Part shown: positions 15,167 to 20,744 of the stretch, one piece after another
How the letters are laid out: every line of letters starts with the position of its first letter
How positions within the stretch are numbered: position 1 is the first letter of the stretch
Assembly: GCA_019358915.1 (NCBI GenBank)
Contig: JAHHIM010000049.1
Span: forward strand, 1 to 25,953
Origin: Trichormus sp. ATA11-4-KO1
GTDB lineage: Bacteria > Cyanobacteriota > Cyanobacteriia > Cyanobacteriales > Nostocaceae
Direction: 5' to 3'
Length of the DNA: 25,953 nucleotides
Translations under genes and position numbers: made by a program
Notes under the pieces: generated by a model
The model's database searches: none
What the model was told of the DNA's origin: nothing
What the model saw: only the letters and a program-made list of their open reading frames with translations

Positions 15167-15217
15167 GTTATATTGTAACTGCGTTCATGCTGTCGATTAA
15201 GAAAAGTTATGTAGTTT
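15167..15217 (-). promoter_or_regulatory. Shared-motif promoter A (MACPF gene)
   Basis: AAACTACATAACTTTT-CTTAA-TCGACA-N18-TATAAC on the minus strand. Confidence 0.65.
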
Positions 15218-15237
15218 GCTAATGAAATTCCTACTAA

Positions 15238-15420
15238 CTAAACCCTGTTAATATAGGTAGCTCCTCGATATTTAAGTTGAGATTGATTTTGAGTTTGTGC
15301 TGTTGTGAAGTTAGTGATTTTATAATTAACTCCGCGATATTTGGCAATTGTAAAATCTTGCTGCTGTGGCATTTTCGTGGTGTTAAATTCATAATAAGAA
15401 CCGCGATAAGACAGTAACAT
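15238..15420 (-). CDS. DUF4278-like small protein (three YRG motifs)
   Basis: LSYRGSYY, AKYRGVNY, LKYRGATY. Confidence 0.8.
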   Translation of the reverse strand: MLLSYRGSYYEFNTTKMPQQQDFTIAKYRGVNYKITNFTTAQTQNQSQLKYRGATYINRV

Positions 15421-15458
15421 AAGTTAATTCCTGTGTTGAAATAGCGTTTATTGTTATC

Positions 15459-15508
15459 ACGATAGGATTTAATTTTTTCTCAGTCGATACATAAAAGTTA
15501 TGTAGTTT
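15459..15508 (-). promoter_or_regulatory. Shared-motif promoter B (DUF4278 gene)
   Basis: AAACTACATAACTTTT-ATGTA-TCGACT-N17-TATCGT. Confidence 0.65.
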
Positions 15509-15618
15509 TTATCAGGCAAGAAGTATTAATTTGATTGCTGACAGACTTAACTTTTCAATAAGTTTGATTTCTCAATTTTTCTAGATTAAGGAAAACAATT
15601 GCTAAAAGCGATCGCCAT

Positions 15619-15652
15619 AAAAAATGCCCCCCAATTCACAATTATGGGGAGC
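15619..15652 (-). terminator. Probable terminator of the spondin/PEP-CTERM gene
   Basis: Imperfect GC-rich hairpin (CCCC..AATT-GTG-AATT-GGGG) followed by T6 on the minus strand, flanked by two HIP1 sites. Confidence 0.5.
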
Positions 15653-15673
15653 GTTCGAGATGCGATCGCTCTT

Positions 15674-16769: not shown

Positions 16770-19700
16770 CTATCTACGACGAATTAAGCCTACGCACAAA
16801 TGACGATCTTCCTCTTTCAAATCTGCACTATTTTGTAAATAATCTCTCACATACTCACAAGCCTGTGCCAACAATTTTTCAGGACTAGAATCAAAGTCTA
16901 AATTCCAGAGAGTAACTTTACCAAGGGAATCTGAGGAAGCCAAAACCTTTCCATCTGGGCTAAAACTCACACTTTTAACCCCAGCATCAAGACCTGAAAG
17001 AGTTTGCAGCACTTCTCCCTGAAGGTTCCACAGCTTGATTGACATATCTTCACTTGCCGTAGCGATCGTTTGTCCATGAGGACTAAAAATCGCTGTATTC
17101 ACCTCGCCTTTATGTCCCCACAGCGTCAATAGTTCTTTACCCTCTCGGTTCCAGAGTTTCACAGTTTTATCTTTACTGGCTGTGATGATCACCTGACTAT
17201 CAGGACTGAAACTCACAGTCTGTATTCCTGCTATGTGTCCTTTAAGAGTTACCAATTCTTTTCCTTGAAAACTCCAGAGTTTAACGGTTCCATCTTCACC
17301 GGCGGTAGCGATGATTTGACCATCAGGGCTAAAACTTACGCTTCTGACACCTGCTTGATGTCCGCGTAAAGTCATAATTTCTTTGCCATCCAGATTCCAC
17401 AGTTTAGCCGTTGTATCCCAACTAGCACTAGCGATTGTTTGACCATCAGGGCTAAAACTTGCACTTCTCACATCTGCTTGATGTCCGCGTAAAGTCACTA
17501 TTTCTTTTCCCAATAAATTCCACAGTTTGACAGTTTTGTCTCGACTGGCGGTAACGACCATTTGACCACTAGGGCTGAATTGGAGGCTTCTTAACGTATC
17601 GCTATGACCACTAAGTGTTAACAGTTCCTTTCCTTGGCGGTTCCAGAGTTTCGCCATTGTGTAACGACCAGTTGTACCAAGAGTTTTACCATCAAGACTA
17701 AAACTGACACTTCCCGCAGCAGCTTCGCCAAGATTGAGAATTAGAGATTGAAATTTTTCCGATTCCTCATGAGCCATATTCCACAATCTCACAGTTCCAT
17801 CTTCGCCACTGCTTGCCACGAGTTGCCCATCTCGACTTAAATTTACACCCCAGACAGCATCTGTATGTCCGTGAAAAATGTGCAATTCCTCGCCTTTGCG
17901 GTTCCAGAGTCGAATTGTTTTATCCCAACTGCTTGTAGCAATGGTTTGACCATCGTGACTGAAGACTGCACTGGCAACTGTATCATTATGACCGTGCAGT
18001 GTCGCCAGTTCCTTACCGTCCAAATCCCAAATTTTTGCAGTTTTGTCTCGACTCGTCGTCACCAAATTCTTACCATCCCGGCTGAAATTAACATACATTA
18101 TCCAATGTTTATGATCTTCCAGGCTCAATAATTCTTTGCCATTCAAATCCCACACCTTTGCCGTACCATCCCGACTGGCGGTAGCAATCATATTTCCCTT
18201 GGGACTGAAATGAATAGCAACAGCCGGGGCTTTATGGGTGGGAAAAGATTTTAACTCCTGCCCTTGTAGGTTCCAGAGTCTCATTGTCCCGTTCCATTCC
18301 ATTGATGCCACTGTCTTGCTATCAGGGCTAAATCCCACACACGCTACCCAATCTTGATGATTTAAGGTGATTAGTTCTTGACCATCTTCCACACGCCAGA
18401 CTTTCACGGTTTTGTCTCGACTAGCACTGACCAACAGCTTACCATCAGGGCTAAAATTAATACTCCAGACTGCATCTGTATGTCCACGCAGAGTTTGAAG
18501 TAACTTACCGTCACGCTGCCAAATTTTTATGGTTTTATCCCAACTGGCACTGGCGAGTTTTTGCCCATCAGGACTAAATTTGACTCTTGTAACTACATCA
18601 CTATGATCCAGCAAACGATTACGTTCGCGCACCCAATAAAGAGATTGACGTAAGTTTTTTTCTACTCGCACCTTTAATTCTGTATCTGCGTTTTCCCATC
18701 CTAGATTGTTTAACTTGATACTAGCCTTTAAACTTTCGATTAAAGCATCAAAGTTATTATGGGACTCAAAAGCTGTTTCTGAAGCCAGAGTTAAAGCTTT
18801 AATCTCACCCAAGCTGACCTGTTGTTTTTGTTGGGCGGTTTGCCATGTTAGTAACCCTGATAAGCCCAAGAGGGTGACGGTTACTAAAGACAGTGCAGAT
18901 AATCCCACCACTCCCCGACGAATCGTTTGTTTAGCTTGCTGTTCCGCATCGAGAAGGATTTGATTAGCCTGTTGCGATGCAATTAGCGCACTCTGTACCT
19001 CACGTTTTTCTAATTCCTCGCTAGCAGCTAAAAACCGATAATCTATGTTACTCAAACTTTTACCCTTAGCCCAAGTTTGGGCATCTTTGAGGGCTTGTCC
19101 TCGCAAGAGATGGGTTTCATCCTGATAATTAGACGCTACCCACTGATTAAGTAAATCTGCGTAGGGACGTAATTTCTTTAATTGCTTTTGTACCCACTCT
19201 ATATTAAAAACTTCTTGATAAATACGATTGTAAACTTGTAATTTACCTTGTTTTTTAACAACTAAACCTGATAGGAGTAACTCAATTTTTTCTGGCGAAT
19301 CATCGGCTGGTACACCACCATTTTGTAATATTTGCAGATATAGTCCTAGTAGCCTGCTAGCCCGTTGTTCATTGCACAGTAACCTGTCGCGGATTGTTCT
19401 TAAATGGGGCGGTTCATCCAGAGAAGCCCAGTTATCGATGATATGCGATCGCACTATAGCAGATACTTGATCGGCGATCGCCTCACTGGTAGTTAATATT
19501 TCCTGCATCAATTTTTTCAAGTAGGGCGATTCTATCCGAGAACAGTTTCCCTGTTGTCCTGTTCCTCCATCCCAATGCTGTGCGACTAATTGGCAGAGTT
19601 TCTGGGTCAGAAACGGCTGACCTCCTGTCCATGCAAGTATTTCTTTCAGTGCAGCCTGGGGATTTTCTACTTTATTTGCTAACCCTATTTCTAATGGTTG

Positions 19701-20333
19701 AACTTCTGCCAAATTGAACCCATTTAATTTAATTGCTCGTCCAATATTAAAAGGTGTGCGAGTTTTATCTGTAATTAAATCTGAAGGTGTGGCTACTCCC
19801 AACAAAGCAAAAGTAAATTGCTTATGGTCGTGACAAGCACGAATCAAAGCAAAAAAGTCATCCGTATTAAATGGTAAGCTAATAGTGCTATCGATTTCAT
19901 CGAAGAAAATTACAATCGGCTGCTGAATTAATTCAGGTAAAACAGATTGCAATAACTCACCCAAGCGACCCACAGGTGAAAAATCTTGTCTTTGGGCTAA
20001 CCAATTGCGGACATTAATTTGAGGTGAAAGCCGGAAACTCCTTACCAGGCGCATGATAATATCTGCATACCACTGGTCGGCTGTGATGTTGCTGTTGCCA
20101 ATTCCAGATAAATCAACCGTCGTGCAAGCAATACCATCTTCTTGCAGTCGTTTAGCCACCTGCACTCGTAAACTGGACTTGCCCATTTGACGACAGTTAA
20201 GGACGTAACAAAACGCACCAGCCCTTAAAGCATTGTAGAGTTCTTCATCAGCCTGCCGTACTACATAGCTGGGTGCATCAATGGGAAGACGACCGCCAAC
20301 ATGATATTCGTAGGTGGAAATCAGCTTCTGCAC
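16770..20333 (-). CDS. AAA-like (AAA_35-type) NTPase - coiled coil - transmembrane helix - 14 WD40 repeats
   Basis: YVVRQAD, Walker [10 protein letters not shown], Walker [52 protein letters not shown] (~18843-18920), 14 WD units. GTG start. Confidence 0.9.
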
Positions 20334-20392
20334 GGGTATTCCTGCCTTTCAAGTCTGAATCGATGCAATGTATCACGCTGTTGACTGTCATA

Positions 20393-20442
20393 TTTATAGA
20401 GGTTTTAGCTGTCACTGTCCATGTAGAAAAGTTAAGGATTTT
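20393..20442 (-). promoter_or_regulatory. Shared-motif promoter D (AAA-TM-WD40 gene)
   Basis: AAAATCCTTAACTTTT-CTACA-TGGACA-N17-TATAAA. Confidence 0.55.
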
Positions 20443-20500
20443 TCCAGAAACACAGGTGTAGGGGTGTGGGGGAGGAAAACTAATAATCGTGAATTCGATG

Positions 20501-20610
20501 AACCTCACCCCAACCCCTCTGTCTTGAAAAGTTCAGTTCGTCGCAGACATTGCCGTAGGCATTGCCGGAAGCCAGCGCTCCGACTTTCGCTCCGATGCAG
20601 AGAGGGGCTA
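20501..20610. repeat. Dispersed repeat (CCTCACCCCAACCCCTCT...AGAGGGG) enclosing a GC-rich insert
   Basis: Complementary arms CCCCTCT (20514-20520) / AGAGGGG (20601-20607) around ~80 nt of GC-rich sequence with a CATTGCCG duplication. Confidence 0.55.
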
Positions 20611-20694
20611 GGTAGTTAACTTTGGGGATGAGAAATTAAACTTTTGAATTTGTTATTTATCAATCTTGCAACAGTTAAGTGATTGATTGGCAAT

Positions 20695-20744
20695 AAATCC
20701 CTTAATTTTTCTATATCGACACTAAATCTTTTGCATTTTATAAA
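20695..20744 (+). promoter_or_regulatory. Shared-motif promoter E (FAAL-NRPS gene)
   Basis: AAATCCCTTAATTTTT-CTATA-TCGACA-N17-TATAAA. Confidence 0.55.

Follow-up and report, generated by a model that had tools for sequence, protein, structure and literature searches.

The cassette and its five promoter sites

The 25,953-nt contig JAHHIM010000049.1 of Trichormus sp. ATA11-4-KO1 (assembly GCA_019358915.1), here called the window and analysed over its whole length, carries a gene cassette with five copies of a 21-bp promoter element (the box). Each copy is oriented toward the adjacent gene, with the start codon 77–193 nt beyond (Table 1). The five genes specify a MACPF protein, a DUF4278 protein, a spondin-domain protein, a protein in which an AAA_35 ATPase domain, a transmembrane (TM) segment and WD40 repeats are joined (AAA_35-TM-WD40, the predicted receptor) and, divergently, a FAAL-type non-ribosomal peptide synthetase (NRPS). 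These gene identities, given in an initial annotation made from the sequence alone, hold by Pfam (MACPF, DUF4278, AAA_35 and WD40) and NCBIfam (spondin and FAAL). The same cassette encodes a second AAA_35 ATPase, of the STAND type, with an N-terminal helix-turn-helix (HTH) domain (HTH-AAA_35). The results support the regulon idea of the initial annotation: the element is real, conserved and regulatory. HTH-AAA_35, which that annotation did not name as a binder, is likely the protein that recognizes it.

The annotation had started from a 16-mer, AAAAGTTATGTAGTTT, repeated identically at 15202–15217, 15493–15508 and 16628–16643, with variant copies at 20417–20442 and 20695–20720, and all five are found at these places. 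Within the source genome (5.97 Mb, 73 contigs) the exact 16-mer occurs three times, always inside the window, and the single copy with one mismatch, at 5630–5645, likewise lies there; this isolated half-site is likely a remnant. In several relatives, a full box is present directly after the HTH-AAA_35 gene. A matrix scan had been proposed, and a matrix built from the five sites ranks them 1–5 among 11.9 million scored positions; when each was left out in turn, four were equalled or beaten by only 3–6 positions, and the weaker FAAL site by 11. With a matrix trained on 71 sites of foreign genomes, the five score 28.3–37.0 bits and the next best position in the genome 17.0, leaving as strong sites only the five, all in the cassette. 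One match to the five-site matrix, at C6:104945, is absent among the matches of the cross-genome matrix and was rejected.

Some details of the initial picture had to be redrawn. While the sites stand, the 16-mer itself is a form particular to this locus; AA.TCCTTAACTTTT is commoner, and the true element is 21 bp long. The five nucleotides once regarded as a free spacer (N5) are positions 12–16 of the box and are conserved across genomes as M-T-R-Y-A. The FAAL-NRPS gene behind the fifth site is not intact: compared with the 2228-aa orthologue of genome G377, it has an inverted-repeat insertion of about 250 bp at 21631–21883 and a deletion of about 390 bp near 23359, and in the source genome it is likely a pseudogene. 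The insertion has 24-bp inverted ends and resembles a miniature inverted-repeat transposable element (MITE). Intact orthologues in G377 and G301 have the order FAAL-ACP-C-A-T-C, followed by C-A-T-TE and an MFS transporter.

Table 1. Positions of the promoter sites and cassette genes within the window.
Feature	Position	Strand	Remarks
Box before MACPF gene	15192..15216	-	AA.T plus 21-mer, 2 mismatches to consensus; end letters form -35 TCGACA; -10 TATAAC at 15167-15172
Box before DUF4278 gene	15483..15507	-	0 mismatches; -10 TATCGT at 15459-15464; inverted half-site AAGTTAAG at 15546-15553
Box before spondin/PEP-CTERM gene	16618..16642	-	1 mismatch; -10 TATAAA at 16594-16599; inverted half-site AAGTTAAG at 16659-16666
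Box before AAA_35-TM-WD40 receptor gene	20417..20441	-	0 mismatches; autoregulatory position; -10 TATAAA at 20393-20398
Box before FAAL-NRPS	20696..20720	+	1 mismatch; -10 TATAAA at 20739-20744; inverted half-site CAGTTAAG at 20672-20679
Isolated half-site	5630..5645	-	1 mismatch to 16-mer; lacks TCGAC and -10; between IS4 end and HTH-AAA_35 3' end
HTH (PF26355)-AAA_35 STAND protein, 470 aa	5863..7275	-	predicted box binder; recognition helix EYIKHDVG
AAA_35-TM-WD40 protein, 1187 aa	16770..20333	-	one hydrophobic segment near residue 474-493; predicted membrane receptor/partner
MACPF-domain protein, 451 aa	13761..15116	-	cargo; present in 10/389 family genomes
DUF4278 protein, 60 aa	15238..15420	-	cargo; downstream of 18/153 sites in relatives
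Spondin-domain protein, 295 aa	15674..16561	-	cargo; PEP-CTERM-like motif at end
FAAL-NRPS	20893..25873	+	cargo; broken in source genome
XRE-NB-ARC-WD40 protein	9845..13669	+	frequent cassette member; rival binder; outside minimal core
MinD-like ATPase, coiled-coil protein, PNPOx-family gene	7333..9593	-	accessory cassette genes upstream of HTH-AAA_35

The element and its target genes across cyanobacteria

A sample of 153 sites was collected from loci of 35 genomes, of which 71 are non-redundant (unrelated flanks) and give the consensus AA.T-MCWTAACTTTTMTRYATSGAC. Sites were chosen at no more than two mismatches to the 21-mer, so that conservation within the 21-mer is partly built in, while conservation outside it is not. 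Outside the search pattern, a TATAA-like hexamer begins at position 39–41 in 53 of the 71 sites (control mean 3.5, maximum 10), 17–18 nt past the -35-like TCGACW, which supports the earlier view of a common promoter architecture with a factor site at -35. The -35 variants are TCGAC or TGGAC in 65/71 and TTGAC in 5/71, and the -10 is mostly TATAAA. A consensus sigma-70 scanner returned 19 matches in the window against 18.5 expected, and none at the five sites, because the final T is missing from four of their five -10 hexamers and their -35 reads TCGAC or TGGAC. An Rfam scan of the window at gathering score gave no matches, and thus none to a glutamine (Downstream-peptide) riboswitch before the DUF4278 gene.

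Upstream of the box, an inverted half-site AAGTTAAG lies within 60 nt in 45/71 sites (controls 5 and 1), and in 42/71 after back-to-back promoters were masked. Its positions peak at -18, -27 and -39 with a best period of 10.5 nt, and among half-sites outside the main peak, 21/36 are in phase (38% expected). In the window, the receptor promoter lacks the usual upstream half-site, and short repeat-like sequence occupies 20445–20610, between the two divergent sites. As to position relative to genes, none of the 153 sites falls deep inside a long open reading frame, and 140 have a same-strand gene close downstream, at a median distance of 90 nt. From these features we infer that the element would be a factor site overlapping the weak -35 of a sigma-70 promoter, accompanied by phased accessory sites.

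This fixed spacing, both to start codons and to a -10 that is itself conserved, and the phasing of the inverted half-sites would be hard to reconcile with copies that are merely scars or ends of mobile elements, or a recombination site for capturing cargo, with no role in transcription. The idea draws on the patchy occurrence of the cassette, the frequent swapping of its cargo, and the IS4 and MITE-like insertion in the window; against it also stand the unrelated flanks and the fact that no conserved gene of the cassette encodes an integrase or recombinase, and we regard it as very improbable. The flanks of the five window sites, compared in register, are only 17–43% identical, consistent with the initial judgement that simple duplication does not explain them. 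The IS4-family element spans 4059–5548 and has terminal inverted repeats, and a further copy of an IS4 repeat end is found at 637–662, before a glycosyltransferase gene.

Among 389 genomes of the family, a degenerate pattern of the element is present in 62 and absent from 327; multiple copies (at least two), usually in clusters, occur in 40, and a reversed control pattern never exceeds two per genome. One genome, G383, proved to be an artefact of the loose pattern, its nine matches dropping to one (with two mismatches) under a refined pattern. An exact scan of GTDB gave at least 137 stretches, nearly all cyanobacterial among the matches listed, including Calothrix, Nostoc, Anabaena, Scytonema and Chlorogloeopsis and, beyond heterocyst formers, Floridaenema, Microseira, Cyanothece, Crocosphaera, Hydrococcus and Leptolyngbya. 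Nine records with non-cyanobacterial names among these matches were taken as chance; five were checked and are single copies with no HTH orthologue.

Such a distribution bears on the question of whether the element is read by a factor serving the whole host, be it an alternative sigma factor, a global regulator or the alpha subunit of the polymerase at an UP element. Its position at -35, the HTH fold described below, which is also sigma-4-like, and a gene resembling an extracytoplasmic function (ECF) sigma by sequence reading in several relatives' loci would fit such a reader. The restriction of strong sites to five in one cassette and the many family genomes lacking the element do not, and the ECF-like gene is absent from the window and from minimal loci. 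Moreover, 21 conserved letters with an invariant C and G exceed the footprint of a sigma or UP element, and the NtcA and DIF1 motifs differ from the box, making a host-wide reader a very unlikely explanation.

Genes common to the mapped loci are those for HTH-AAA_35, the MinD-like, coiled-coil and PNPOx proteins, XRE-NB-ARC-WD40 and AAA_35-TM-WD40. The minimal loci of G396 and G400 consist of box, receptor and HTH-AAA_35 in one row, with no further cassette gene. A receptor-like gene is the commonest target (first gene at 31/153 sites). Of 33 orthologues of the receptor, 29 have a site no more than 250 nt away; the other four are an internal fragment, a decayed copy, one with its site at 307 nt, and one true miss. 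Next in frequency as first genes are those for DUF4278 (18), cyclic peptide exporters (16) and RTX-repeat proteins (12), followed by NRPS, peptidoglycan peptidases and large LamG proteins (4 each) and MACPF (3). Spondin proteins, a flavin monooxygenase, a lectin, and YcaO and C39 transporter operons also occur, while 22/153 are other genes, some without an export link (a dehydrogenase, a cyclase), and 13/153 sites have no gene of 100 aa nearby. The best solved relatives of the MACPF protein are perforin-like protein 1 and complement C8. In G369, ten box matches occupy seven chromosomal places, some far from the cassette, and the regulon therefore also acts at a distance.

Several targets deserve separate mention. 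Operons for contractile injection systems (sheath, tube, PAAR, baseplate) begin directly behind a box at L063–L064 (G352) and L101 (G353). A gene for a peptide of about 59 aa (57–65 aa) with a lipobox-like LAQAC stretch comes first behind 16/153 sites (e.g., L042:11981–12160) and stands before genes for 2400-aa LamG proteins or flavin monooxygenase; the peptide has no Pfam or NCBIfam match. An Atlas search with a 2436-aa cargo protein gave only LamG leads, all below 0.9, and PADLOC returned no match for either core ATPase or the cargo. Our verdict is that the regulon extends to a mobile pair of STAND proteins, a predicted sensor and a predicted regulator, with swappable cargo. The cargo is mostly exported or surface-located, largely of conflict type (MACPF, RTX proteins, injection system, NRPS), and varies by genome, suggesting an inducible response to other organisms.

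The candidate binding protein

With an orthologue cut-off of E<1e-40, HTH-AAA_35 is found in 41 of the 389 family genomes, 37 of which have at least two sites and 40 at least one; the 41st gains sites under the refined pattern. Seen from the other side, 37 of the 40 family genomes with two or more sites carry the orthologue, the three without it being G383, G092 (two matches) and G016. A sample beyond the family comprised 26 genomes reached via named loci, some of which may repeat family genomes, and of its 17 genomes with at least two sites, 15 have the HTH orthologue and 10 an orthologue of the XRE-NB-ARC-WD40 protein. The predicted recognition helix, EYIKHDVG, is invariant in 28/28 orthologues (65–95% identity).

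Twenty loci with weaker HTH matches provided a natural control. Most contain a paralogous HTH-AAA_35 protein with the helix TTEYLQHDVGPKLW, adjoining an AAA_35-CHASE2 protein and a divergent RTX gene. The RTX promoters of this second class share a box 2, AAACTCCTTAAATTATCCAYATTTAC, which is in register with the first box (box 1) and differs from it at several positions; it recurs before second RTX genes with unrelated flanks. Box 2 is present in 25 of 336 genomes (control 0), all 25 of which have an HTH match in the score band of the second class, and among the 22 box-2 genomes without the first HTH, box 1 occurs only in G016. Loci with the helix YIK[HN] have box 1 in 31/35 and box 2 in 0/35, and those with Y[LI]QH have box 2 in 14/17 and box 1 in 0/17; one locus with another helix has neither, and three HTH matches with a non-matching helix were excluded from this tally. 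The HTH proteins of G087 and G337 have diverged to 58–59% identity with the window protein, yet keep the first helix and box 1, and in G109 a second-class HTH sits on an NB-ARC protein with a box-2 variant adjoining. This covariation of helix and box is strong circumstantial evidence that the HTH may be what reads the box.

The second system (L276–L295) is made up of the helix TTEYLQHDVG, the AAA_35-CHASE2 receptor, RTX cargo and box 2. Further pairs of HTH-AAA_35 and AAA_35-WD40 proteins, at about 45% identity, are encoded at L294 (G058) and L259 (G390); the G058 protein has the helix AAKYLRQDVG in a locus without either box, a candidate third specificity. Genome G000 encodes six more HTH proteins of the same type (C28, C1, C39, C2, C7 and C55), with different predicted recognition helices.

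The other potential DNA-binding protein of the cassette is the XRE-NB-ARC-WD40 protein, a one-protein STAND regulator with an N-terminal XRE-like region recognized by sequence reading (no Pfam row was seen). Most Nostocaceae cassettes include its gene. No orthologue was found in G390 (seven sites), G393, G396, G397, G400 and G403, genomes of unstated completeness that all have sites and HTH-AAA_35, nor in the fragmented assemblies of G129 and G168. The box-2 loci have no such gene nearby and their box follows the other HTH's helix, and the XRE gene of the window has no preceding box. G009 and G016, which retain the XRE gene and sites and in which no HTH-AAA_35 was detected, speak for this protein, but as the binder it seems distinctly improbable.

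Predicted mechanism and known systems

The AAA_35 domain of the HTH-AAA_35 protein is recognized at E 4e-147, and its Walker-A GKTS is invariant in the 28 orthologues. The protein contains a STAND NBD-HD-WHD module with Walker A and B, and its full model (pLDDT 75.9) matches archaeal 2qen (Z 17.7) and MalT (8bob, Z 14.4), with further fold matches to plant resistosomes, CED-4 and Avs3. The N-terminal HTH is annotated as PF26355, and when modelled alone (pLDDT 92.6), is closest to the LuxR/NarL/FixJ and sigma-4 HTH domains, at middling scores (Z 6–6.8). PDB sequence searches with alignments of HTH-AAA_35 and of the HTH gave nothing significant, and a Pfam scan of 20 HTH domains gave weak GerE matches in just two. 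The 470-aa protein consists of HTH and STAND only, with no sensor domain and no hydrophobic segment. The receptor has a single hydrophobic segment between ATPase and WD40 repeats, and its WD40 part is predicted to lie outside. By profile comparison the two ATPases are homologues of each other (probability 98%, 26% identity), and they conform to the paired sensor-executor pattern, that is, two homologous, co-occurring STAND genes, one with a sensor and one with an effector; contact between the two AAA_35 proteins is predicted.

The five sites are copies of one 21-bp element over a weak -35. We consider it likely that HTH-AAA_35 binds them, and activation of the promoters is predicted once its membrane partner, AAA_35-TM-WD40, receives an outside signal. 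The WD40 propellers beyond the single membrane helix would sense a ligand or contact, and the cytoplasmic STAND domain of the partner would then switch the HTH-STAND protein to an ATP-bound oligomer. This oligomer would bind the proximal box and the upstream inverted half-sites on one helix face and recruit sigma-70 polymerase to promoters with TCGAC and TATAAA elements; with the receptor gene itself a target, positive feedback could follow. The phased inverted half-sites appear compatible with an ATP-dependent oligomer occupying several sites.

The overlap of box and -35 is also what many operators display, and HTH-AAA_35 could act as a repressor that is released by the signal. Promoters with so few TTGAC hexamers are, however, poor by themselves, the box leaves the -10 and the start uncovered, and having a receptor gene among the targets would agree with feed-forward amplification. 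MalT, the nearest model of a STAND protein with an HTH, is described as an activator in the accessible text of PMC10427625, and repression is, on balance, unlikely.

Named protein records of Nostoc PCC 7120/FACHB strains, with near-consecutive accessions, include proteins closely homologous to those of the spondin, PNPOx and HTH-AAA_35 genes. The PCC 7120 tags alr2790–alr2802 presumably correspond to the cassette targets. All2797 is tabulated as MinD-like in the accessible part of PMC7766704, and the accessible part of the transcription-unit table of PMC10287535 (ammonium and nitrogen-starved cells) gives no unit between alr2790–alr2791 and alr2802, with alr2791 sharing the alr2790 start. RNA data of a relative contained only 5% of the words and consist of assembled contigs, so that neither start nor level is readable.

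A number of observations weigh against binding and activation of these promoters by HTH-AAA_35. The empty stretch in the PCC 7120 unit table fits silence without a signal and, equally, non-function. G016 has four sites and no HTH orthologue was found in its 150 contigs, a real exception; G009 has one site and has lost the HTH gene but kept the XRE gene, in a decayed cassette with truncated MinD, receptor and cargo genes; and no HTH orthologue was found in G401 and G406, with 2–3 sites each. Linkage within a mobile cassette predicts much of the co-occurrence, and the two helix classes are two clades with linked genes, so that their dissociation amounts to about one independent contrast. The receptor gene of G390 has no upstream site, and a Foldseek search with the HTH model gave no match at E<=0.001. 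Lastly, the -10-like hexamer of box 2 lies about 8 nt further from the box and the -35 overlap is not general; the ATCGAC end is therefore part of the site of the factor, and its role is not necessarily confined to that of a -35.

A broader reading, which we put forward tentatively and with slightly less than even confidence, is that of a distinct class of transmembrane signalling, in which an NLR-like membrane receptor ATPase would activate an HTH-STAND protein and so turn on an arsenal regulon that amplifies itself and spreads by horizontal transfer (pore-former, injection system, RTX/lectin proteins, and products of NRPS and of ribosomally synthesized, post-translationally modified peptide pathways). 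Receptors would be interchangeable (WD40, CHASE2), and each HTH class would read its own 21-bp box. Filamentous cyanobacteria have many STAND-WD40 proteins of unknown output, and one class now has a DNA site, targets and a candidate receptor, tying NLR-like sensing to transcription rather than cell death. The box would mark co-induced secreted proteins and natural-product clusters and offer a route to wake silent clusters. Because the named protein records place the cassette in Nostoc PCC 7120, a strain amenable to genetics, the model is testable there. If the broader reading is true, silent regulons could be switched on at will, and the numerous PF26355 proteins of cyanobacteria would amount to a code for them that can be read.

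We found no account of this box, regulon or signalling pair in the literature covered, which leaves out most subscription journals and some supplements, such as the 2011 start-site tables. Pfam names the HTH family PF26355 after the vWA-MoxR-VMAP ternary systems, which are likewise cyanobacterial conflict-type loci; no MoxR, vWA or VMAP gene is present in the window or the mapped loci, which sets the cassette apart from those systems. HTH domains of conflict systems are mentioned in Kaur et al. 2020 (PMC7159879), in whose accessible text no DNA site or regulon is given for the PF26355 HTH. In the accessible part of PMC11119718, AAA_35, NB-ARC and WD40 are accessory domains on cyanobacterial proteins with sigma-70-like domains.

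Relay of an outside signal through the membrane to a small regulon, as predicted here, is shared with several known systems. In ToxR/CadC-type regulators, two-component systems and ECF sigma/anti-sigma pairs, an outside signal likewise reaches a small, often autoregulated regulon. The core pair differs from all of these: it lacks a kinase and a receiver, has no sigma region 2 and no DNA-binding domain tethered to the membrane, and its relay is predicted to run from STAND to STAND.

AAA_35 is, we take it, the Npun2340/2341 (MNS-clade) family, which reportedly occurs in gene pairs. The cassette resembles such paired STAND/NLR modules (cyanobacterial Npun2340/2341; sensor-helper NLR pairs such as NAIP-NLRC4) in bringing together two homologous STAND proteins, a variable sensor (WD40, CHASE2) and an effector. 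It differs in its effector, which would be no cell-death enzyme but an HTH specific for one DNA sequence, with a regulon that can be defined. The Npun2340/2341 STAND family is named in the accessible part of PMC8195603.

Among known systems, the nearest likeness is to MalT of Escherichia coli, which also combines a STAND ATPase with a LuxR-like HTH. The MalT HTH is LuxR-like, and its sites form arrays in both orientations near -35. According to the accessible text of PMC10427625, MalT is a STAND activator that, as an oligomer, occupies several sites in each promoter and brings in RNA polymerase. HTH-AAA_35 would thus work like MalT, yet is not a member of the MalT family, because its 470 aa comprise HTH and STAND only. 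MalT, whose HTH is C-terminal, includes a sensor domain and responds to a sugar in the cytoplasm; the window protein, in contrast, has an N-terminal HTH and no sensor, and sensing is predicted to reside in a second, membrane-anchored STAND protein.

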